A stretch of DNA of 64,000 bases, taken from contig JAXHLW010000011.1 in assembly GCA_034521815.1 (NCBI GenBank), positions 40,336-104,335 on the forward strand. The letters are read 5' to 3'. Each line of letters opens with the position of its first letter. The stretch's first letter is position 1. The notes below the pieces were generated by a model, which made no database searches, was not told where the DNA came from, and was given only the letters and a program-made list of their open reading frames with translations. This DNA comes from Trueperaceae bacterium (GTDB lineage: Bacteria > Deinococcota > Deinococci > Deinococcales > Trueperaceae). Below, one piece after another: positions 9,406-26,247 of the stretch. The position numbers and the translations under genes were made by a program.

Positions 9406-10479
9406 TCAGGCAGCGTCCGCCGACGCGTCGCTCGCGCCCACGACGCGGTTCTTGCCCAGACGCTTGGCGCGGTACAGGCGCCGATCGGCGCGTTCGAGCA
9501 GCTCCGCGACGGTCGTCAGCGGCTCGAACGTCGCGACGCCGAAGCTGGCCGTGACCCCGACGCCGCCCGAGTAGAGGTGGCGCTGAACCTCGTCCCGGAC
9601 GCGTTCGGCCAACCTCAGCGCCTGTTCGTGGTCCGCGTCGGGAGCGATGATCAGGAACTCCTCGCCTCCCCAGCGGCCCAGCACGTCGCCGGTCCGTAGC
9701 AGCGGTCGCACGCTGCGCCCGACCTGCTCCAGGACGCGGTCCCCGACGTGGTGACCGTGAACGTCGTTGACGCGCTTGAAGTCGTCGATGTCGAAGAACA
9801 CGACCGAGAGCGCCAGGTCGTGACGGAGGGCCAGCGAGGCGTAGCGGTGCAGATTCTCCTCGATCCCGCGACGGTTCGGAAGGTGCGTGAGCGCGTCGAG
9901 GTACGCCATCTCGCGCATCTTCTCGGTCTCCATCAGGGCGCTCGCGTGATCGTCCTTGCTGCGCGCCAGCGCGTAGAGCATCAGCATCGTCACCGCCAGC
10001 GCCCCTTCGTACGCGATCAGCTGCGCTGCAGAGCCCACCGGAGCTCCGACCCGCGAGCCCACGACCAGCCAGGCGGCGGTGATCGCGACCGCGACGGCCA
10101 GCTCGGCCGCCGAGAGGATCAGCGCCGTTCGCGTGGCGAACAACAGGTACGCCAGAATCGCGAGCACGATGAAGATCATGAACACGTCGGGGGTGAGCCG
10201 CTGCGCGACCGGCAGTGCGGCGTCCGACCAGAAGAACCGCGACGCCACGATCCAGACCCAGAACAGGGCGAGGAAGACGTACGAGATGCTCATCACGGTC
10301 CGGGTCGCCAACCGCCTCCTGGCCAAGGCCCAGAACGCCCAGCACAGCTGGAGCGCCAGCACCGGATACCCGAACGCCTCCAGCGGAGACGCGGACGCGA
10401 ACCGTCCCAGCGCCAGCAGCGTCGGAACGGCCAGGGCGATCACGGCGAGCAGGAGCGGACGGTGTCGGTCCAGGTTCAT
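9406..10479 (-). CDS. Membrane-anchored diguanylate cyclase
   Basis: About 6 TM segments, DALTHLPNRR, DIDDFK, RTGD I-site and GGEEF. Confidence 0.92.
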   Translation of the reverse strand: MNLDRHRPLLLAVIALAVPTLLALGRFASASPLEAFGYPVLALQLCWAFWALARRRLATRTVMSISYVFLALFWVWIVASRFFWSDAALPVAQRLTPDVFMIFIVLAILAYLLFATRTALILSAAELAVAVAITAAWLVVGSRVGAPVGSAAQLIAYEGALAVTMLMLYALARSKDDHASALMETEKMREMAYLDALTHLPNRRGIEENLHRYASLALRHDLALSVVFFDIDDFKRVNDVHGHHVGDRVLEQVGRSVRPLLRTGDVLGRWGGEEFLIIAPDADHEQALRLAERVRDEVQRHLYSGGVGVTASFGVATFEPLTTVAELLERADRRLYRAKRLGKNRVVGASDASADAA

Positions 10480-14099: not shown

Positions 14100-17000
14100 T
14101 CATGCCACCTTCAGGGGAAGCGGTACGCGTCTCGCGAGGAGCCACGCGAAGTCCTCCTCGCTGAGGGGGACGCTGAAATAGTACCCCTGACCCATCGAGC
14201 AGCCCAGCGCGAGAAGCGCGTCGCGCTGTTCTGGACGCTCGATCCCTTCGGCGATCACCGTGGCGCCGATGGACGAGGCGATCTTCAGGACGGACGCGGC
14301 GATGTCGCGGCTGTACGGGTCGTCCGGCAGGCCGTGCACGAACGCGCGATCGATCTTGATGTCGTCGAACGGATAGTCCTTGAGGTACGCCAGCGACGAG
14401 TAGCCGGTGCCGAAGTCGTCGAGAGACAGCTTCACGCCCAGCGCGTGAAGCGCGTCGAGCTGGTCGCGTAGACGGGCCCGTTCGTCGGCGAAGACGCTTT
14501 CGGTGAGCTCGAGCGTGAGGCTGCTGGGCGGCACGCGGTGGCGCGCCAGGATCTCTTCGACGTCCATCAGGAACTCGCGGTCGGCCAGCTGCTCGACACT
14601 GACGTTCACGGCGATCTGGACGATGTCCAGACCGTCGTCCTGCCATGCACGAAGCGTCTTGCAGGCGCGATCGAGGACCCAGCGTCCGATCGGCACGATC
14701 AGATGGCTCGTCTCCGCGACGGGGATGAACGCTCCGGGCGAGAGGAATCCCCGAGCTGGATGGTTCCAGCGGATCAGGGCCTCGCCCGCGACGAGGCGAC
14801 CGCTGGCCAGCTGGACCTTGGGCTGGAAGTGGAGCTCGAACTCGTCGTTCTTGAGCGCTTCGCGAAGCTCGTTGGCGAGCTCGACGCGACCTCGTGCCGC
14901 CCGGTCCAGATCGGACGTGTAGGCCTGACCGTTCGTAGGCGACCCGAAGCGACTGGCGTGCAGGGCCACCTCGGCTTCGCGTAGCAGCCCACCTGGAGGC
15001 CGAGGCTCGGCCCCGAGGCGGGTGTAGCCGTAGTGGGCGCTGACGTCGAGCTCGAACCCGTCGATCACGAACGGCTCGTCGAACGAGCCGTCCCGGTTTC
15101 CGAACAGCTCGACGCTCAGCGACGCCTCAGGTGCGAGGTCCGGGAGGAGCACGGCGAACGCGTCGCCGCCGGTCCGCGCGACCAGCCCGTCCGGACCGGC
15201 CGTGGCCGCCAGCCGATCACCGATCGCCCTCAGCAGGGCGTCGCCGATCGCGAAGCCTTGGGATTCGTTCACGTTGCGCAGCTCGACGAGGTCCAGCGCG
15301 ACCAGGACGGCTCGCTCGGGCCACGGGACGCTGGTCCAGGTAGCTGGTCAGCTCGCGAGCGAGCCCGTCGCGCGTCAGGTAGCCCGTGAGAGGATCCTCG
15401 AACGCGATTCGTTCCAGAGCCGCTTCGGCACGCTTGGCTTCGGTGACGTCGATGTGCATGACGACCGCGCCCTCGAGCTCGGCATCGGTCCGAAGCGGCG
15501 TGGCCGCCAGACGGAACCACCGCTCCTCGCTGGGCGAATGGCACGGGTACTCGTACACGAACGACGACCGCTGGTCCGCGAGGACGGCGCGCAGCCCGGC
15601 CGCCACCTGAGCGCCAGAGCCTGCGTCCTTGCCGCGGGCCGCGTCGCATACCTGCAGGTAGCTGACGCCGACCTGATCGTCGTCGGCATCGTTGTCATCC
15701 GCGAACGTCCGCCAGCGGTCGTTCACGCTGGTGATCACACCCGACGCGTCCAGGACAGCGATGTTGGCGGGAAGCGAGTCGATGAGAGCCTTCCTGGTCG
15801 TGAGCTCATTGGCGAGGTGGGCCTCCTGGCTCCGCAGCCGCTCCACCATGTCCCGGCGTACGGTCACGTCCCGCAGCCCGACGGCGAGGCCCTCCCCGGT
15901 CGGATCCACCCAGATCTCGAGCCAGCGGCCGGTCGTCGGATCGAAATCGTCGAAACGTGTCGAGACGCCGTCGTCCATGGCGCGCCTGATCTCGTCGCCG
16001 ATACGGCTTTTCATCACGCCCGGCAACACGTCGTCGAGCAGCCTGCCGGCGACGGCCGTGTCGTGCCAGAGCTCGGCGATGCGGATCGCCGCGCTGTTGG
16101 CGAAGGTGATCCGCAAGGCGTCGTCGATGAGGACGAAGCCGTCGTTGAGCCGCTCCAGCGTGGCGCGCAGGCGGTGGTCGAGCTGGTGCGCCCGAAGCTC
16201 CGCCCGCTTGCGGGCGTCGACGTCCTGGAACGCTCCCTGCACGCCGGTGATCCGGCCGGAGGCGTCGCGCACCGGCTCGCCCGTCGTTCGGACCCAGATC
16301 CGCCGGCCGGTCGCGGTGACGATCTGCAGCTCTTCGTCGTACGGCACGCCGTCGCGCACGGCGCGCTCGTACGCGGCCCGAATCCGGTCGCGATGCTCGG
16401 GCGCGTAGAACACGATCGCTTCAGCGACCGTCGGCCGCGTGCCGAGCGGCACCTCGTGAATCTCGCAGACCCGGTCCGACCAGGTCAGCGCCTGCGTCCG
16501 GGCGTCCACGTGCCACCCGCCGAAACGTGCGATGCGGCTCGCGATCTCCATGACGCGGCGCTGCTCGTCCAGCGCCGCCTGGGCCTCGACACGCTCCGTG
16601 ACGTCCTGGATGACCCCCGCGACGTACATCGGGCGGCCTTCCTCGTCACGCTCGACGTCACCACCGATGTGGACGTGACGATCCTCGCCCTGCCCGGACC
16701 GCATCCGGAACGTGTCGTACGTCGGCCCTCGTCCGCCTGTCACGGTGGCATGCAGCGCCTGATATCGATCCGCGTCGTCGGGATGGATCATCTCCCGAAC
16801 CTGGTCCACCGTGGGCGGCGCGGCGTCGGGAGCGAGGCCCAGAATCCGGAGCACCTCGGCAGACACCTCGAGCTGGCCCGAGTCGACCGTTCGGCGCCAC
16901 GAGCCGATGCGGCCGATCCGCTGCGACTCGAGCAGCATCGCGGCGTGCCCCTGGAGCTCCTGCTGCCGGTCGTGCAGCTCCTGTTCGGCCGCGTCGCGCC

Positions 17001-17736
17001 GATCGAGCATCGCGTTCAGGGCGGCGCCCAGCCGCGCCATCTCGTCGCGGCCCAGCACGTTCGCCCTGGCGGAGGCGTCGCCGAGGCCCACCCGGTCCAT
17101 CACGCGGACCAGCTGCGCCGTGGGTCGCCCGAGGCGCCGATACAGGAACCACGACGCCGCCAGGCTCAGGAACGCGAACAGCACCGCGAAGCCTCCGAGC
17201 GCACGCGATACCCTCGCTACGGTCGCGTCGGCCTCGAGGTGCCGTTCACGGACCAGCTCGGCCACGACGTTCTCGATCGTCACGCCGAACGCGGCCATGC
17301 GCGTCAATGTGGCGGCCGCCGGCTCCGTCACGCCGAGCACGCCTTGCGTCGGACCGAGGAGCGTGGAACCATTCGCGCGAGGACGATCGAACGCGTCGGC
17401 GGCCAGCTCCGCCATCTCGTCGAGGGCCGCGACCGCTCGCTGGGCCGCAGGCAACGCGTCCTCCATCTCGGTCAGCTCGGACCGGACCCGCCTGAGCCGG
17501 GTCAGGAACGCCGGCAACGACGCCTCGTCGACGGCGTCGACCAGGAGCGCGTCGGCGGCCACCGAAAGCTCCGCGACGCGCACCTGCAACCCCGTGAGCG
17601 TCTCGACCTGAGCTATGTGGTCGCGCGACTGCTGCGACGCCCAGAGGGCGAGCACGATCAGCGCGACGCAGCCGACGAAGCTCAGAGCCGTCACGATCCG
17701 GGCGACCGCGACCATGCTGACGGGACGGGCGTTCAC
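14100..17736 (-). CDS. Membrane HAMP/multi-PAS, degenerate-GGDEF, EAL c-di-GMP phosphodiesterase (frameshift ~15325)
   Basis: TM-HAMP (DEMARL), several PAS domains, GGDAF, EAL, DDFGTGYSSL, KIDRAF and EGIE. The two ORFs join on removing one C. Confidence 0.85.
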
Positions 17737-18118
17737 GCGGATCCCGTCACGGGCGTCGTCGTCGACGTCGTCGTCGGCTTCGTCACGGCCCGCTGGTCCG
17801 GTGTCCTGGCCTGCCCGGCGACGCTCACCCCGCCCGTGACGCGTCCGATGACGCGTCGCACGGTGGCGCGGGTGAACGCTGACTCGTTGCCATGGTGGAC
17901 GGACGATATGTCATTCGATGGCACGGAGTCCTTACAAGCGACGCATCTGCTCACGACGCCAGCCTCCGTCCGCTTCAGGTGGTCCGGTCCACCGCACAGT
18001 GCTTTGGCACGTGCTCCACGATTGCGCATCCCCCGCCCGACACGAGCAACGTAGCAACCCGCGGCACCGCCGGGCGTGGACATGACCACATCGCGACGCC
18101 GCCCACGCCGGCATGCGA

Positions 18119-18151
18119 GCACCCCTGCGGGTGTCGTCGCCGCAGGGGTGC
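18119..18151 (-). terminator. 12-bp GC-rich stem-loop downstream of the lipoprotein gene
   Basis: GCACCCCTGCGG-N9-CCGCAGGGGTGC; no U-tract. Confidence 0.5.
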
Positions 18152-18246
18152 CCATCGCCTCGCTCAGGCCGCTCGCTCAGGCCGCGCGCTCATGCATCGA
18201 GCGCCCACACGTGTGCAGCACGTACGGACGTTCGACGCGCCGAGGA

Positions 18247-18984
18247 TCAGCCGCCCAGCTTGATCGTGCTTCCCTTCGACGTCAGCGTGAAGTCGACCGT
18301 GTAGCCCCCGATGGTCGTCTCCGACTCGATTTCGATCGCGACGCGGAAGGTGCCACGGTTGGGCGTCTCGGTGTCGCGAAGCATGAGGATCGACACGAGG
18401 CGTTCCAGGTCGTCACGATCGGTCAGCTCCACGTCCAAGACGTCCTCCAGCGGGGCCGATCCGACGTACGCGTAGGTGCACGCGAATGCACCGCACGTTT
18501 CCAGCTCGAACGGCAGGTCCAGATCGACGTCCGTCGTGAACGACACGTCGCCGTTCACGTCGTCCTGCAACGTGCCTTCCACCACGGCGCGCGTGACGGT
18601 GAACCCAGCCGGGGAGTCGGTGGCCAAGGTGCCGGTCGGGACGCTCAGCGTCACCGATTCCTGGAGCCCGGCGTTGGTGTGGAAACCGGCGAGACTGAAG
18701 CCGCGCAGGTTCTCGTCCAAGTCGGGAACGTCGAAGCTGCGGGTCACGTCGAGATGGCTGGTGCTCTGCGCCGAGAGCCCGCCATCGTCCAGCGTGGCGG
18801 TGACCGCCTGGCCGTCGACGCCCAGCGGATCGCCGACCTCCAACGGTGGCACGAACGCGGCCACCAGGCCGCAGGCGCTGAGCAGCGTCGCAGCGGCGGT
18901 GATGCCGATCGCGACCGCGAGCCTTCGCGGACGGTGTTCACGGGTCGTGGATCGTGGTGCGGGTCGTAGTGTCGAACGGATCAT
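18247..18984 (-). CDS. Uncharacterised beta-rich lipoprotein
   Basis: GAGGAGG RBS; basic n-region, hydrophobic h-region and lipobox LSAC. Confidence 0.8.
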   Translation of the reverse strand: MIRSTLRPAPRSTTREHRPRRLAVAIGITAAATLLSACGLVAAFVPPLEVGDPLGVDGQAVTATLDDGGLSAQSTSHLDVTRSFDVPDLDENLRGFSLAGFHTNAGLQESVTLSVPTGTLATDSPAGFTVTRAVVEGTLQDDVNGDVSFTTDVDLDLPFELETCGAFACTYAYVGSAPLEDVLDVELTDRDDLERLVSILMLRDTETPNRGTFRVAIEIESETTIGGYTVDFTLTSKGSTIKLGG

Positions 18985-18987
18985 GGT

Positions 18988-19024
18988 GCCTCCTCGGTGG
19001 GATGGACATCTCCACCGAGGAGGC
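18988..19024 (-). promoter_or_regulatory. SD-sequestering hairpin (riboswitch expression platform)
   Basis: mRNA reads GCCUCCUCGGUGG-N11-CCACCGAGGAGGC-ACC-AUG: a perfect 13-bp stem that hides the SD. Confidence 0.85.
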
Positions 19025-19064
19025 CCGTCGCTGGCCGTATCGGCTCGGAACGGGTTCTCTCCTG

Positions 19065-19138
19065 CGATGGCCGGTTGCGCTACTGGCTCCGCCTGCTCCA
19101 AGCGCCCAAGTACGGAACAGGCTTCATCGCCGCCATCG
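19065..19138 (-). ncRNA. Cyclic di-GMP-II riboswitch aptamer
   Basis: Minus strand reads CGAUGGC GGCGAUGAAG CCUGUUCC GUACUUGGGCGCUU GGAGCAGG CGGAGCCAGUAGCGCAACCG GCCAUCG. It shows P1 (CGAUGGC/GCCAUCG), conserved UGAAG, UUGGGCRC and GAGYYAGURGYGCAACCG, and a GCGC/GCGC pseudoknot. A TAGCTT -10 lies at 19153-19158. Confidence 0.88.
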
Positions 19139-19625
19139 AACGACGTCCTGTGAAGCTACGCGGCCGTGCTGCTACGCAGCGCAGGGACGCGTCCACGCTA
19201 CGCGCAGGGATCGCACGGGCTTCTTACATCGGCGCGTGGCCGGCATCGACGCGCTCCCCGTAGTCGCCGGGGCGCACGACGCTGGCTTCGAACAGGCGCC
19301 TGACATGATCGATCATGACGCGCGATCCGGGTTGGCGTCGGCGCCGACGACGAGCTGCAATGTGGTGACGTCCTTCATGGACGGTCCTGTCCATCGTCGC
19401 GCGAATCGAGCAAAAACTCAGCTTTTCCGGGTCGCTCGGCTTCCGGGTCGAGGGCGGTCACCTGCCGGTCTTCGCGAACCGACGACGGCAGCCTCCGAAT
19501 CGAGTGCCGTTCGCCCCCCTGGAGCGACGTCGAAAGTGTGCCACGTCACGCTCACGTGACTCTTCGTGGTCGAGCCGGCCGACGAGGACGTGCCACGCGT
19601 CGGTCGTTGCCGCGAGTGGTCTTCG

Positions 19626-20755
19626 CTACTCCCCGCGCGGGCCTGTCGCGCCGTCAGGCATGCGGTCAGGCACGCCGTCGGCCACGACCTGGTTCCGACC
19701 ACGGTCCTTCGCCGCGTACACGGACAGGTCGCCAGGCGAATCCGGCTGATCGCCGACTCGGTCGGGCGCAGCTCGGCCACGCCGAAGCTGGCGGTCACGC
19801 TCTCCTTGCCGGGGAGACGCAGGTCGAGCTCTGCGATCGCCTGGCGGCAGACGCTCCGCCGTTCAGGGTCCGCGTCCGCCGGGGACATCCCTCCTCCCGG
19901 GAGGACGACGACGAACTCCTCCCCGCCCCAACGGGCCACGGTGTCGTGGCCACGCACCGTCCGCTGCGCGACGTTCGCGATCGCCTTCAGGACGCGATCG
20001 CCGACGCTCGTGACCGTAGCGGTCGTTGACCTGCTTGAAGCGGTCGAGATCGAACCACGCCACCGACATGGGGTGCTCGTAGCGGCGAGCGCGCTCGACC
20101 TCCTGCTGCAGCCGCTCCTCGGCGCCCCTCCGGTTCATCAGGTCCGTCAGCGCGTCGCTGGTCGCCAGCGACGCCATCGTCGAGGCCCGTTCCCGCTCCG
20201 CGCTCGTGACGCGTACGATTCCGCCGATCAGCACCAACACGCTCGCTTGCACCAGCACCACCTCGATCAACGTCGTCTGGGTGCCGAGCGTCGAGAATCC
20301 GTCGATCGCGAGCAGGGCGACGGAGGCGACGACGAGCGCCGCCCAGGCACCCCACGCCACGAGCCCTGCCGCGCGTGCCGACAGCGCCAGATGCGCGAAG
20401 CCCGCGATGGCCGCGGTCCACATCGCGATTCGGACCGCGCCGTCGACGTCGCCTTCGCCTTGGCCCAGGCTCGCCGCCACGACCGCGGCCAGCGCCACCA
20501 CGAAGGCGACGACGGCGGCCGCGACCAGCGATCGCTCGAACGCCCGGGGCACGCTTCGACGCACCGCCATGACGCCCGCGGACGCCGAAGGAGCACCACG
20601 CCGACGATCACCGCGACCAGCCAGTTCGCGGTGGACCGGGAGTCGTCGAACGACCCCGCGATTCCCACCAGGAGCGCCGCGACGCCCCCGACCGGTAGGA
20701 CCACGAGGTAGATGCTCCGTTTGAGGACCGCAGTGCGAGACGGTTGCGACGGCAT
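19626..20755 (-). CDS. Membrane-anchored diguanylate cyclase (at least 3 frameshifts)
   Basis: TM region, DALTDLMNRR, DLDRFKQVND, RGHD, GGEEF, TASFGVA and YAAKDRGRNQV spread over different frames. Confidence 0.72.
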
Positions 20756-20842
20756 GACGCGCCAAAGGTAGCACGGGCGCTCCTCGCGCGAAGGGGCGTC
20801 ACGCTGGGGTGGCGCCTGCTGCCGCCGTCCTGTCTTCTGTGA

Positions 20843-20939: not shown

Positions 20940-21578
20940 GTGCGCCACGTCCTCATCTGCGACGCCGAACCGATGTTCCGCTACGGACTCGCCCACCAGC
21001 TGGCGCGCCGTGGCTGGACGGCGAGCGTCGCCGAGGCCGGCACGGTGGCCGAGGGGATCGCGTCCGCCCGCGAAGCTCCGCCTGCCGTGATCGTGGCTGA
21101 CGCGGTTCTGCCCGATGGCCCCATCGACGATCTGCTGGCGGACCCGTCCGTGCGCAGCGCTGGGCCCCGTGTGATCGTGGTTCCGTCCGACGCGGACAGC
21201 GCCCCGCCCCGCGGCGAGCCGGTTCACGCCGTCCTTCCACGCCACACCGGCGTCGAGCGGCTCATCCGCGCCATGGGACCGGAACAGGAGGACGGACCTT
21301 GCCTGCCCGAACGCCAGCGACAGGTCCTGGCCCTCGTCTGCCGCGGCTGGTCGAACCGTTCGATCGCCGAGGAGCTGGGCATCCGCGAGAAGTCCGTTCG
21401 CAACTGTCTCACGCGGGCCTTCCGCAGCCTCTCCGTCCAGAACCGCACGCAGGCAGCGATGCACGTCCTGAACAGCGGCCTTCGGCCCGTCGCACCCCCC
21501 GCCGCGTCACCCGCCGCGCCACCTTCGGGCGGCGATGGCCGCACGCATCACGCACGGCCCATCCGCTCGATCCGGTAG
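20940..21578 (+). CDS. NarL/LuxR-type response regulator with an atypical receiver domain
   Basis: VLICDAEP...VIVAD receiver; LPERQRQVLALVCRGWSNRSIAEELGIREKSV...NRTQAA LuxR HTH; AAGGAG RBS. Confidence 0.85.
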   Translation: MRHVLICDAEPMFRYGLAHQLARRGWTASVAEAGTVAEGIASAREAPPAVIVADAVLPDGPIDDLLADPSVRSAGPRVIVVPSDADSAPPRGEPVHAVLPRHTGVERLIRAMGPEQEDGPCLPERQRQVLALVCRGWSNRSIAEELGIREKSVRNCLTRAFRSLSVQNRTQAAMHVLNSGLRPVAPPAASPAAPPSGGDGRTHHARPIRSIR

Positions 21579-22749
21579 TCGACGCAGGCTTCGCCTCGCC
21601 GGTCGGCGCGTGCGTCCTCAGCGCAACGACGACGTCGACGAAGGCGTCGATCAGCTCCGGATCGAACTGCTCGCCCGCTTGCGCCACGAGCTCGGCGACG
21701 GTCTCGTCGTGCGTCCAGGCTCCCTTGTACGGTCGTTCGCTGGTGAGCGCGTCGTAGACGTCGACGAGGCTGAACATGCGCGCCAGCAGCGGAATCTCGG
21801 AGCCGGCTAGCCGGTCGGGGTAGCCGTGGCCGTCCCAGCGCTCATGGTGACTACGGACCACCTCCCTGGTACCGGGCGAGAGGAACGGAATGTCGCGGCA
21901 CATCTCGATCCCGATGACGGTGTGCCGGCGGATGTGCTCGAACTCGTCGTCCGTGAGCCGGCCCGGCTTCAGCAGGATCCCGTCGGGGATGGCGACCTTG
22001 CCGAGGTCGTGCAGGTACGCGCCCCAACGGAGCGCCTGCAACGTCGGCTCGTCCATCCCGAGCTTCTCGCCGAACGCGACCGCCAGCGCGACGACGCGGT
22101 CGGTGTGCCCCTTCGTCTCGTAGTCGCGGTACTCCAGGGCGACGCCCAGCGCCCGGAGGGTGGCTTCGTGCTGAGCTCGCTCCCGCTCGAGCAGGTCGAG
22201 ATTGCGCACGGCGATGGCGGCCAGCGTCGCCGTCATCATCAGGCCCGGCGTGTGCTGGTCGCGAAAGGCCGCGAGCTCGGGGCTCTGCACCTCGATCGCG
22301 CCGAAGACGCGTCCTTCGAGGCCGAACGGCACGGTCAGGCTGGAGCGTGGCGGGTTCTCTTCGAAATCGCTGCCGGTGTCGACGCGCGGCAGGCCTGCCG
22401 TGGCGACGGCCAGGTCGGGCGTGTTCACCACCTCGCCGCTGCGAATGGCGCGGCTCTGCGGACCCTGGTTGAGCGGGAGGTCGGGGAACTTGGTGAGATC
22501 GACGTTCTCCTCCAAGATCAGGTCGCCAGCGGCGTCGACCACGATGTCGGCCGAGTAGACGCAGCGGCGCATGCCGGTACCGGGTAGGTAGAGGACGACG
22601 AAGATCCCCGTGGCGGGCGAGGTACGAGCAGCGAAGCGCGTCAGGGCGCGGAACACCTCGCGCATCGAGCGCGCAGCGGCGATTCCCTGCGCGACCGTCG
22701 CGACCGGCTCCAGGTCGTTGCTCGGGAGGGGGATGGGCTCGTAGTCCAT
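21409..22749 (-). CDS. GAF + HD-GYP c-di-GMP phosphodiesterase
   Basis: ETKGHTDRV, LHDLGK, HHERWDGHGYP and DVYDALTSERPY. The 3' end is uncertain because it overlaps the convergent gene. Confidence 0.88.
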   Translation of the reverse strand: MDYEPIPLPSNDLEPVATVAQGIAAARSMREVFRALTRFAARTSPATGIFVVLYLPGTGMRRCVYSADIVVDAAGDLILEENVDLTKFPDLPLNQGPQSRAIRSGEVVNTPDLAVATAGLPRVDTGSDFEENPPRSSLTVPFGLEGRVFGAIEVQSPELAAFRDQHTPGLMMTATLAAIAVRNLDLLERERAQHEATLRALGVALEYRDYETKGHTDRVVALAVAFGEKLGMDEPTLQALRWGAYLHDLGKVAIPDGILLKPGRLTDDEFEHIRRHTVIGIEMCRDIPFLSPGTREVVRSHHERWDGHGYPDRLAGSEIPLLARMFSLVDVYDALTSERPYKGAWTHDETVAELVAQAGEQFDPELIDAFVDVVVALRTHAPTGEAKPASTTGSSGWAVRDACGHRRPKVARRVTRRGVRRAEGRCSGRASLPACGSGRRGCGRPA

Positions 22750-22936
22750 GTCGATTCTCGTAGTGTCCCACGCTCGGCCCACGCGAGGTTCGGCATCTGC
22801 GGGGATCGCCACCGTGCCTTGCAGCGCCGACCCGAAGCACCCGCGCATCGCGCGCCGGTAGCTTGTGCGACACGGGTGGTACGCTCACCGCCAACGAACC
22901 ACGAACCACGAACGCAGCGCATTCGACCACCGGGGG

Positions 22937-25242
22937 TTGAACGTGAACAGGGGTGTCCTGCATGCCGTCGTGACAACAGACGGTCGCTGGTTGCAGGTTT
23001 CGCCAGCGTTGTCCAGGTTGTTGTGGGGGCCAGGCGGGACCGTGCGTTCCCGCTCGCTGTACGACGTGATCCACCCCCGAGTCCGTCGCGTCGATGCGGA
23101 GGGTCGTGTCGGGCGCGGGCACGTCGAACGACACCTTCGGGTGCCAGCTGGTGCTGCACGACGGGTCGACCGTGTGGACGTACGTGCGGCTCGCCCGCGT
23201 CCACGACACGGCGGACGAAGCGGCAGACGAAGCGGACGACGAAGCGGCGGGCCAGACGCCCGCAGGGCGGGCGCACCTTACGTTCTCCTACCCTCTGCTG
23301 GCGTCCCGCCTGACGCCCGTCAGGTCCCCGGCGGACGACCGCTTTCGGGCGTTCTTCGAGAACAGCTTCGATGCCGCGTTCCTCACCGCTCCGGACGGGC
23401 GGATCCTCGAGGCGAACCCGGCGGCATCCGCCATGTTCGGCTACACGCTCGAGGAGCTACGCGCCAAGGGCAGATCGGCCGTCGTCGACACGAGCGATCC
23501 GCGCCTCGCCACGATGCTGCGCGAACGGGAGGCGACCGGCGCCACCCGCGGCCACCTGTCGATGCGCCGCAAGGACGGGTCGCGCTTCGAAGCGGACCTA
23601 GCGAGCAGCGTCTACACGGCCCCAGCGGCGAGGCGCGCACCAGCATCATGGTGCGAGACCTGACCGAACAGATCGAAGCGGAACAGGCCGACCGCCGCGA
23701 GACGATCGAGCTGGCCCGGCGCATCGAAGCGCTGACGGTCCAGACCAGCTTCGCGTCCAGTCCAGCAGCGATCTACCGAGCCCTGCTCGACTTCGCCATG
23801 GCCGTGTCGCCCGCCGAAGCGATGCTGATCACCGAACGAGGCGAGAACGGCGCGTCCCTCGTCGACGTCTACGCCGGCTGGAACATGGGCGGCGCCTCCT
23901 CCGAGGAAGCGCCGCCACGCATACAGTCCGCCGCGCACGATCCCGCGACGCTCGACGCCGTCCTCAGAGAAGGACGGAGCACGATCGTGGACGACCTTCT
24001 TGCCGGATCACGTCCGGGCTTCTCGCCGGTGCTCGGCCCTGCCAGCGTGGCGGAACGCTCCCGCTCGGCGGTGCTGCTGCCCATGGCGGTCCTCGGCAAG
24101 ATCGAGGGCATGGTCGAGTTCCGGTCGTCGCGACCCGGCGCGTTCGCCCAGCACCACGTGGCCCCGCTACGCCTGGCGGCGACCCTCGCAGCGATCAGCG
24201 TGAACGACCTTCGGCACCACGAACGCGAGCGGCAGGCCCGAAAGCGGGCCGAAGCCGGCTGGCGGCACCTCCAGGAGATCGTCGACCAAGCCCCGGTGAT
24301 GATGGCGACGGCAGGCGGACCGGAGCACGTCTTCACCAGCGCCAACCGGCTGTATATGGAGACGCTCGGACTCGAGGACATCGTCGGAAAGCGCGTCATC
24401 GACGTGCTTCCCGAGATCGAGGCGCAAGGCATCATCGACATCCTCGACCGCGTATACGACACCGGCGAGCCGTTCGTCGCGAACGGCATGCCGATGGACC
24501 TCGACGTTCAGGGAGAGGTCGACGCGGTTCTACTTCAACCTGGTCTACCAACCGATCCGCGACGGCGACGGCAAGGTCACCGGCATCCTGGCCAACGTGA
24601 ACGACGTCACCAGCCTGTTCCGAGCCAACGAGAGGCTGCACGCCCTCAACGTCGAGCTACGCGAAGCGTACGACCAGACCATCCGAAGCTGGGCCCTGGC
24701 GCTGGACATCTGGGACGAGGACACCGCCGGCCACAGCCAACGCGTCACCGACCTCACCGTCCGCCTGGCCACCCGCCTCGGCATCCACGGCGACGACCTC
24801 GAGCACGTCCGCCGCGGCGCGCAGCTGCACGACATCGGCAAGATGGCGATCCCCGACCGGATCTTGTCGAAACCGGGCACGCTCACGCCGGACGAATGGG
24901 AGATCATGAAGACCCACACCACCCAGGGCGCACGGTTCCTGGAACCGATCGCCTACCTCCGGCCCGCCATCGACATCCCCCGCCACCACCACGAACGCTG
25001 GGACGGCAGCGGCTACCCGGACGGCCTGGCCGGCGAGGCGATCCCCCTACCCGCCCGGATCTTCGCCGTCGTCGACGTCTACGACGCGCTCACCAGCGAC
25101 CGGCCGTACCGCGCGGCGTGGACGCACGAGCAGGCGATCGCGCACATCGAGGCCGGCACCGGCAGCCACTTCGACCCGCGGATCGCACCGGACTTTCGTC
25201 GAGATGATGGCGGACCGCGCCTCCCACGGTATGCGTCAGTAG
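22937..25242 (+). CDS. PAS-PAS-GAF-PAS-HD-GYP phosphodiesterase (about 4 frameshifts)
   Basis: PAS motifs (ANPAASAMFGY, RRKDGSRF), GAF, TAGHSQRV, LHDIGK and HHERWDGSGYP joined across frames. Confidence 0.78.
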
Positions 25243-26247
25243 GTCGGGAGTCCGGAGGCGTTCGCTTTGACGCCGAACTCCTCGCGGAAGCGCCGCGTGA
25301 TCTGGTGGAGCGCGTTCAGGCTCAGGGCGTCCCCGTACTCGCCGTCGCACGCCGCGAGCACCTGCTCGAGCTGCCCGACGTCGTTGATGCTCACCACCGT
25401 GCTGGCGACGTCGGGGCGTCAGCGAGAACCGCAGGGCCAGCTCGGTCCAGGACGTGTCCGGCTCGCCCAGCACGCGCTTCGCCTCCTCGAGCTGGTCGTA
25501 GGCGCGGTCCCATTCGGGCCCGTTCATGCGATCACCGGCGGGCAGCGCGGCGCGGTCGATCCGCTTGTCGGTCAGCAGGCCGCCCATGAGCGGCCGAATG
25601 CCGATGAAGCCCGCCCCGCGGCGTCGCAGCTCGGGGAACAGGTCCAGCATCTCCGTCTCGAGGAGATCGAAGTAGGCGACGACCCCTTCGAACAGGCCGG
25701 TCTCGAGGGCCGCGCGGGCGTACCCGACCGTGTAGGGAAACGTCGCGAGGTGGCCGATCTTGCCTTCGGACGTCAGCTCCTCGACGACTTCCCCGAGCGG
25801 CTCGACGATGCTCGGGAAGGTCGGCCAGCCGCTGCGGCTCGCCCGCCTCCTGGTAGGCCACGCGCGCGGTCCAGCGCTGCCACGCTGCAGGTGCTGCACC
25901 ACGGCGATCCGCTCGGCGTGCAGGTCGCGCAGCGCATCCTCCACCTGGGCGCGAAACGCCGCCTTGTCGAAGCGCTCCTCTCCCCAGTCGGGAACGTTGA
26001 CCTTGATGACGTGATGCACCTCGTCACGCTTGGGGTAGCGCGCCATGACCTCGCCGGTCGCCCAGCGGGTCCCGTACTCGTAGCTCGAGTGGACGCAGTT
26101 CACGCCGCGCTCGAGCGCCTCCTCCAGCGCATGCATGCCGTTCAGGCTCTTCTCGTCGCGACCCGGCTCCTTCGCCGCGAAGCGCATCGTGCCGAAACAG
26201 ACTTCCGACACGCGAAGGTCCGTGCTTCCGAACTGTCGGTACTTCAT
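25236..26247 (-). CDS. Aldo/keto reductase (frameshifted)
   Basis: MKYRQFGSTDLRVSEVCFGTM, EGKIGH and RPLMGGLLT; AGGAGG RBS. Confidence 0.82.

Follow-up and report, generated by a model that had tools for sequence, protein, structure and literature searches.

Riboswitches that turn translation OFF by sequestering the Shine-Dalgarno (SD) sequence, with an anti-sequestor supplied by the 3′ strand of helix P1, are exemplified by the thiamine pyrophosphate (TPP) riboswitch thiM of E. coli. The class II aptamers for cyclic di-GMP (c-di-GMP) are represented by the Rfam family RF01786 (c-di-GMP-II), the structure PDB 3Q3Z and the Cdi-2 riboswitches of C. difficile, and they are reported as typical of clostridia and deinococcus (PMC9495176). 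The C. difficile examples studied are ON switches acting through transcription termination or splicing (PMC6366702). Tandem c-di-GMP-II riboswitches have also been catalogued, with 59 doublets, mostly from Paraclostridium, and 9 triplets (PMC9481103). The locus considered here lies in a 64,000-nucleotide (nt) stretch of DNA, referred to below as the window, from contig JAXHLW010000011.1 of assembly GCA_034521815.1 (2.63 Mb, 13 contigs, 83.5% complete), which belongs to a salt-loving Trueperaceae bacterium of the phylum Deinococcota. On the minus strand of the window, a complete and genuine class II c-di-GMP riboswitch occupies the leader of a gene for a predicted lipoprotein, P0001. The best explanation of the locus as a whole is that this riboswitch controls a monocistronic lipoprotein gene as a translational OFF switch, and a probability of about 0.6 is assigned to it.

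With the described class II aptamers the window leader shares a match over the full model, covariation in P2 and P3, the pseudoknot and the GCAACCG motif. It differs from the C. difficile examples in that its expression platform appears to be translational, three helices compete, the predicted direction is OFF, and position 12 of the Rfam model is occupied by C. As in the thiM-type OFF switches, P1, anti-sequestor and sequestor exclude one another and an SD hairpin stands by the start codon; the aptamer class and the ligand are different. In contrast to the tandem arrangements, doublets of which do occur in Trueperaceae genomes, the window leader carries a single aptamer. The variant aptamer c-di-GMP-II-GAG (RF03169) belongs to the same clan, has the same fold, stands before some members of the same lipoprotein family and likewise ties the SD to P1 there, but the corresponding triad in the window is GCA.

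The entire window was searched by cmscan against Rfam 15, and the sole match at or above the gathering score came from RF01786 (gathering score 53.5 bits). The match runs from 19143 to 19060, covers model positions 1–84 of 84 and reaches 77.4 bits with an E-value of 9.1e-16. A class II aptamer had been proposed at this place in an initial annotation of the same DNA; the search bears this out, and all letters placed by that annotation were found at their minus-strand positions. On the same stretch the models of the GAG and GCG variants (RF03169 and RF03170) score 62.0 and 56.5 bits, respectively, i.e., 15–21 bits below RF01786. The aptamer belongs to neither variant: the triad at 19080–19078 is the canonical GCA and RF01786 is the best model of the clan. 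The ligand-recognising strand GCGCAACCGG at 19080–19071 has the canonical GCA form (GCAACCG), and the ligand-recognising residues A69, A70 and G73 of 3Q3Z fall within this GCA triad plus ACCG, as described in PMC13715770. The two strands of the pseudoknot (P4), GCGCU at 19105–19101 and AGCGC at 19081–19077, are complementary. The window RNA is thus a class II aptamer by model, motif and fold, and it is predicted to bind c-di-GMP.

The same RNA precedes homologous genes in related bacteria, as had been suggested as a check on the initial proposal. RF01786 was found 75–80 nt upstream of the start codon at 8 of the 9 genome loci and all 6 metagenome loci inspected (64–79 bits), that is, at 14 of 15 loci; the remaining one, L005, has just 135 nt of upstream DNA. 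The nine genome loci come from metagenome-assembled genomes, seven labelled as Trueperaceae and two as 'uncultured bacterium'. When a wider family profile was run on 128 Trueperaceae genomes, an aptamer was present at 7 of 29 further loci, several of which are records already reached by the other route. Homologues with at least 52% identity to P0001 and enough upstream DNA all have the aptamer; those with at most 44% identity do not, with the exception of a paralogue of 26% identity (L030). The flanking genes are different or lie on the opposite strand in L004, L006, L007 and L011, so the RNA and its gene appear to behave as a self-contained, monocistronic unit. The distinct riboswitch-linked leaders, including that of the window, number 15 (alignment A2, 15 distinct rows), and the comparisons below refer to this set unless stated otherwise.

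Within the aptamer, the core of P1 (CGAUGG/CCAUCG) forms six of six pairs in every leader; five pairs are invariant, and a U-A pair becomes U-G in two. The 5′ strand of this core, together with C19132, which can pair with G19071, spans 19138–19132. The outer P1 pairs of the Rfam model are poorly kept, giving 6–9 of 11 pairs in total. The pairs of P2 and P3 are maintained and show covariation, and 2 pairs of P3 have changed on both sides.

The expression platform lies downstream. The strand GCCUCCUCGGUGG (19024–19012) pairs with CCACCGAGGAGGC (19000–18988) in a 13-base-pair (bp) hairpin which ends 3 nt before the ATG at 18984; with a further inner 3 bp the hairpin covers 19024–18988 and has a local folding energy of −31.4 kcal/mol. 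It encloses the SD sequence GAGGAGG (18995–18989), the GGAG of which ends 5 nt before the ATG. The anti-SD strand CUCCUCGGUGG (19022–19012) can pair either with the SD strand or with the 3′ strand of P1. The leader as a whole (19160–18960) has a minimum free energy (MFE) of −87.6 kcal/mol (z −3.1; none of 200 shuffles was as stable), and the SD hairpin is part of this MFE fold, in agreement with the hairpin proposed at first. A sequestor, defined by pairing of at least three of the four GGAG bases, is predicted in 14 of the leaders at −17.5 to −31.4 kcal/mol, the exception being L017. The reading of the platform as translational, i.e., SD-sequestering, is supported by this fold. Between aptamer and sequestor, the MFE fold has a middle hairpin at 19054–19024, closed by CCCGU and ACGGG and containing a GCCG/CGGC stem; it holds four of the six pairs in the whole alignment that have changed on both sides. 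The four short elements named in the initial annotation were located at 19054–19050 (CCCGU), 19028–19024 (ACGGG), 19063–19059 (AGGAG) and 19022–19018 (CUCCU).

The feature that connects the aptamer with the sequestor is a third helix. The 3′ strand of P1 with its extension, CCAUCG-C-AGGAG (19070–19059), is complementary to CUCCU-CGGUGG of the anti-SD strand (19022–19012) over 11 bp with one bulged C, and it can thus serve as the 5′ arm of an anti-sequestor. The initial annotation had proposed an alternative helix between AGGAG and CUCCU, together with pairing of CCCGU and ACGGG. The AGGAG/CUCCU pairing is real, but it turned out to be only the outer part of the longer helix, in which CCAUCG pairs with CGGUGG. 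Between 9 and 11 of the 11 pairs stand in every leader, and CGGUGG is invariant in all of them. In the alignment 92.7% of the cells are paired, compared to 36.7–61.4% when the partner strand is slid by 1–3 columns, and RNAalifold, given no hint, places the anti-sequestor in the consensus. L012–L015 have G for U at one position of the anti-SD; their pairing moves from a 6+5 to a 7+4 register, with a C-G pair and a bulged A, and still comprises 11 bp.

The 12-nt 3′ strand of P1 was also matched as a duplex with all sites of the downstream platform, with 500 dinucleotide shuffles per leader as a control. In 14 leaders the strand pairs best with the anti-SD (−13.9 to −17.3 kcal/mol, against shuffle means of −9.5 to −12.5 across the set); in L017 another site wins. 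The observed energy was reached by 0–3 of the 500 shuffles in eight leaders, by 12–32 in five, by 78 in L012 and by 206 in L017. For transcripts ending immediately after the anti-SD, the unconstrained MFE structure contains 10–11 of the 11 anti-sequestor pairs in 11 leaders and not a single pair of the P1 core in any of the 15. When either helix is forced in these truncated transcripts, the anti-sequestor beats P1 by 1.1–7.7 kcal/mol in 14 leaders, and the opposite holds for L007, by 2.0 kcal/mol. A margin of 1.1–7.7 kcal/mol is one that tight binding of a ligand could plausibly overcome, and the balance is of the kind to be expected for a switch.

Three helices thus compete for shared strands: P1, formed by CGAUGG(C) at 19138–19132 with (G)CCAUCG at 19071–19065, the anti-sequestor and the sequestor. 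According to the proposed mechanism, in the absence of ligand the newly transcribed anti-SD strand would displace the weak P1, the 3′ strand of which would then hold the anti-SD and leave the later-emerging SD accessible. When c-di-GMP is bound, P1 would be locked and the anti-SD would be free to capture the SD, which would block initiation at the ATG. The features expected of an OFF switch are seen in the leader: the SD sits in a stable hairpin by the start codon, and the anti-SD can alternatively pair with the 3′ strand of P1 in a helix exclusive with P1. Since the anti-sequestor competes with P1, the direction of the switch, left open in the initial annotation, becomes predictable, and it seems rather likely that the ligand switches expression OFF. 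Control would then be exerted at translation, and the lipoprotein, being the product of an OFF switch, would belong to the low-c-di-GMP state.

Several observations weigh against this explanation. The anti-sequestor shows no covariation: 7 of its 11 pairs never vary in the 15 leaders and none changes on both sides. Its conservation could therefore be a by-product, because P1 and the sequestor use the same letters. In L017 both the sequestor and the anti-sequestor are poor. In the full-length window leader, the state with P1 and the sequestor lies 14.5 kcal/mol below the anti-sequestor state in energy, so that the window switch would need kinetic, co-transcriptional control or may be mostly closed; across the set the difference between the two states ranges from −11.9 to +14.5 kcal/mol, in a comparison whose column-based constraints fit L013–L015 poorly. 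The C at position 12 makes the affinity for the ligand, or its identity, less than certain. The four C. difficile class II riboswitches studied are ON switches (PMC6366702). Finally, the evidence from RNA libraries consists of a single 440-nt metatranscriptome contig of a relative (X12, record 10), which spans the counterparts of 19120–19012 and 18915–18673. A joint transcript is compatible with this contig, and carry-over of DNA is possible as well. The two RNA-library runs are Logan contigs, which show neither transcript starts nor strands and cannot prove transcription, and the pile-up of contigs on 19138–19067 stems from other copies of the aptamer.

The C. difficile precedent also speaks for the first alternative, an ON switch in which the ligand favours the short AGGAG/CUCCU helix (19063–19059 with 19022–19018), stacked on CCCGU/ACGGG and a closed P1, and thereby frees the SD. 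The 5-bp helix does exist, and it is compatible with the folded aptamer, because AGGAG lies outside the conserved 6-bp core of P1. However, these 5 bp would have to outcompete a 13-bp hairpin of −31.4 kcal/mol, nothing couples their formation to the ligand, and CGGUGG, invariant throughout the set, would play no part in the step that depends on the ligand. An ON switch appears unlikely for these reasons.

A second alternative retains the architecture of the OFF switch and assumes that the ligand, or the affinity for it, differs from canonical c-di-GMP sensing owing to position 12. The Rfam consensus at this position is A, and the window has C19132, as do all 15 leaders of the lipoprotein genes and that of L030. 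Other Trueperaceae aptamers were aligned with MAFFT for comparison, namely the second class II aptamer of the same genome (L002), the 20 best-scoring RF01786 matches in Trueperaceae genomes and two doublets. Of these 25 aptamers 24 have A; the single C is that of L066, where the gene downstream is unrelated. The solved structures show this adenine atop P1 in a non-canonical pair, as the floor of the pocket, with the lower ligand base stacked on it, and a single-nucleotide deletion in P1 turned a class II aptamer into a binder of cyclic GMP-AMP (cGAMP) (PMC13715770). In the window, C19132 can form a Watson-Crick pair with G19071 in place of the usual non-canonical A-G pair. In addition, it is the GAG variant that stands before homologous genes at five Deinococcaceae-like loci. 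Nevertheless, the departure concerns a single position and leaves the RF01786 score far above the cut-off, the base-recognising GCAACCG is canonical, RF01786 outscores both variant models, and a change in the stacking floor need not alter specificity. Moreover, the window is rich in GGDEF, EAL and HD-GYP genes. An altered ligand or affinity is therefore regarded as rather improbable.

The last alternative takes the hairpin to be a thermometer or a translational damper that acts constitutively, while the aptamer would act mainly on transcript elongation or stability, e.g., through Rho access; a transcriptional effect would be factor-dependent, since no intrinsic terminator was found in a scan of 17900–19700. 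This reading draws on the stability of the window sequestor, far above that of any alternative. It is nonetheless improbable: 14 of the 15 leaders retain the complementarity among all three helices, the energies of which mostly differ by a few kcal/mol, and relatives place the SD in or beside P1.

The gene controlled by the translational OFF switch proposed here occupies 18984–18247, stop codon included, and encodes 245 amino acids (aa). The N-terminus of P0001, RPRRLAVAIGITAAATLLSAC38, has a charged n-region, a hydrophobic h-region and an LSAC lipobox, and the protein is predicted to be a lipoprotein, i.e., a substrate of signal peptidase II. The cysteine codons are at 18873–18871 (Cys38), 18495–18493 (Cys164) and 18480–18478 (Cys169), the latter two forming the CGAFAC motif. 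All three cysteines are invariant in 46 sequences, and Cys38 is invariant in the alignments of 20, 46 and 56. The segment directly after the lipid-anchor cysteine, CG-x-VAAFVPP-x-x-V-x-DPLGVDG, is highly conserved. An AlphaFold model based on 46 sequences (mean predicted local distance difference test score, pLDDT, 82.7; predicted template modelling score, pTM, 0.72) is mostly beta, with a beta sandwich from about residue 45 and the invariant cysteine pair at the ends of a beta hairpin. In this respect the initial description of a beta-rich lipoprotein of 245 aa with a close cysteine pair was accurate.

P0001 was also described at first as an uncharacterised protein, and the searches agree with this. 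No Pfam family matched, NCBIfam gave only a sub-threshold match to a signal peptide, and a search with 56 diverse members of the family against Pfam returned nothing beyond two single matches at E of about 0.005. The family profile reached at best an E-value of 0.13 against the sequences of PDB. Forty-seven homologues were collected as 90% clusters, and none is named beyond 'hypothetical protein'. A profile search of 1.84 billion representatives gave 106 clusters with E ≤ 0.001, 44 at 1e-10 and 20 at 1e-30; apart from two members of 103 and 322 aa, the 106 are about 200–270 aa long. As for the fold, Foldseek against PDB, a check named in the initial annotation, gave template modelling (TM) scores of at most 0.20, and a search of the ESM Atlas yielded no usable lead on the function. 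VIA found 7 chains with Z of at least 5, the best (Z 6.5) being an iridovirus capsid protein and the N-terminal domain of PNGase F. The likeness to beta-sandwich domains (the PNGase F N-terminal domain, carbohydrate-binding modules, viral jelly rolls) is weak, with a root-mean-square deviation of 4.1 Å over 125–128 residues; such scores fall in the range which the tool labels 'common arrangement only'. The sequence searches gave no relation to these domains, and no function can be transferred. Of the 'envelope or biofilm factor' proposed at first, the envelope part stands on the lipoprotein signal, while nothing in these searches speaks for a role in biofilms.

The family was found in 87 of the 128 Trueperaceae genomes. 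In a sample of the phylum it is present in 63 of 151 genomes, with 36 of 82 in group f2, 20 of 48 in f3 and none of 8 in f4. The product may be described, on the strength of the model, as a putative lipid-anchored beta-sandwich protein of a Deinococcota-wide family. The genome of the window itself has a second, distant copy at G000:C1:226252-226875 (L084; E 1.3e-28 to the profile), and the approximately 450 nt before it hold no aptamer.

The association of the family with class II-type aptamers extends beyond the Trueperaceae. Among the 28 scanned f2 and f3 loci, which are Deinococcaceae/Thermaceae-like, the GAG variant (RF03169, 63–71 bits) stands immediately before the homologous gene in five, namely L080, L083, L088, L089 and L090 (in G231, G188, G217, G226 and G247, respectively). 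L080 and L083 show the GAG triad, and at the GAG-linked Deinococcaceae-like loci the 3′ strand of P1 itself contains the SD. No aptamer was found upstream at four further Trueperaceae paralogue loci, including the second copy in the genome of the window. The link between the family and class II-type aptamers thus occurs at least three times, in the Trueperaceae clade, in L030 and in the Deinococcaceae-like group. It is tentatively suggested that such aptamers have this lipoprotein family as a recurrent output across Deinococcota, which may be ancestral; the aptamer would be canonical with C as pocket floor in Trueperaceae and the GAG variant in Deinococcaceae-like genomes, and both would hide the SD upon binding of the ligand. 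On present grounds this is a possibility rather than an expectation. If true, the protein would be an envelope factor of the low-second-messenger state shared by the phylum, and orthologues under canonical and variant aptamers would provide a direct handle on the ligand of the variant. To our knowledge, the ligand of the GAG variant has not been established. As a separate observation, seven Deinococcaceae-like loci (L075, L076, L077, L097, L098, L102 and L103) have a tRNA gene at this place and no aptamer.

A literature search found no publication that joins Truepera, c-di-GMP and riboswitch, and supplementary gene-association tables may already list the lipoprotein family. The riboswitch class and its presence in the phylum are already known, and knowledge of the class itself is unchanged by the present finding. 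What is added is the conserved three-helix translational platform with its predicted OFF sign in 15 leaders, the clade-specific change in the floor of the binding pocket, and an orphan, phylum-wide lipoprotein family as a repeated target of the aptamers. In this set of leaders the competing helices can be read from the sequence, and the sign predicted is opposite to that of C. difficile. Together, the leaders and the lipoprotein family offer a compact system in which to ask which sign the switch has, how the ligand is tuned (C-for-A floor, GAG triad) and how the envelope behaves at low c-di-GMP, in a lineage which is radiation- and salt-tolerant.

Upstream of the aptamer, a candidate −10 box had been proposed. 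Its letters, TAGCTT, are present at 19158–19153, but a scan of 17900–19700 for sigma-70-type promoters found no promoter-like site. In the region about 10–60 nt before the aptamer, the 14 related leaders (L004–L018) share a TAnnnT box, at a distance of about 36–38 nt, and after it a short GC 5′ hairpin; the window differs in sequence over 19200–19144 and lacks the 5′ hairpin of its relatives. In all 15 leaders RNAalifold further predicts that AUGG (19136–19133), from the 5′ strand of P1, pairs with CCAU at the start codon (18986–18983; columns 25–28 with 177–180 of alignment A2), which may be due to chance or may represent an extra contact in the ligand-free state. After the stop codon of P0001, two strong GC-rich hairpins with no U tract (18245–18100; folding energy −86 kcal/mol, z −3.1) may mark the end of the transcript.

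The window is dense in genes of c-di-GMP turnover between 9406 and 27147. They include a GGDEF gene (9406–10479), a HAMP-PAS...GGDEF-EAL gene (14100–17736), a further GGDEF gene (19418–20774), a GAF-HD-GYP gene (21409–22848) and an HD-GYP gene (24597–25589). The genes at 14100–17736 and 19418–20774 are each split over two overlapping frames, which could reflect a frameshift, an assembly error or a pseudogene. A conserved operon or c-di-GMP island was considered and rejected: of the loci compared, only those of the closest relatives, L012–L015, have the PAS-GGDEF-EAL, GGDEF and LuxR genes as neighbours, in contrast to L004, L006, L007, L008, L011 and L018.

Class II aptamers are abundant in the family. 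RF01786 matches occur in 115 of the 128 Trueperaceae genomes, with up to 22 per genome and 557 in all (150 listed and 407 unlisted). The second class II aptamer of the genome of the window (G000:C13:602324-602408; 73.9 bits; locus L002, 1501–2087) is followed after 8 nt by the ATG of a gene for a lipoprotein of 164 aa, which contains an Asp-rich repeat as well as an Ig-like domain of the Big_5 family. Its SD, GGAGG, stands directly after the 3′ strand of P1, in a wiring similar to that of P0001, and the two leaders have GGAGGCACCAUG at the SD in common. A third, sub-cut-off match of 34.4 bits in the same genome (G000:C13:1441852-1441938; L003, 1501–1587) precedes an open reading frame of 433 aa with a twin-arginine-like signal and no Pfam match. 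Same-strand RF01786 doublets, about 95 nt apart, are found in other Trueperaceae genomes, e.g., at G062:C237:37493-37751, G082:C7:5446-5707, G061:C477:7443-7704 and G080:C34:9803-10064, and the doublet of G082 precedes a lipoprotein of 349 aa.

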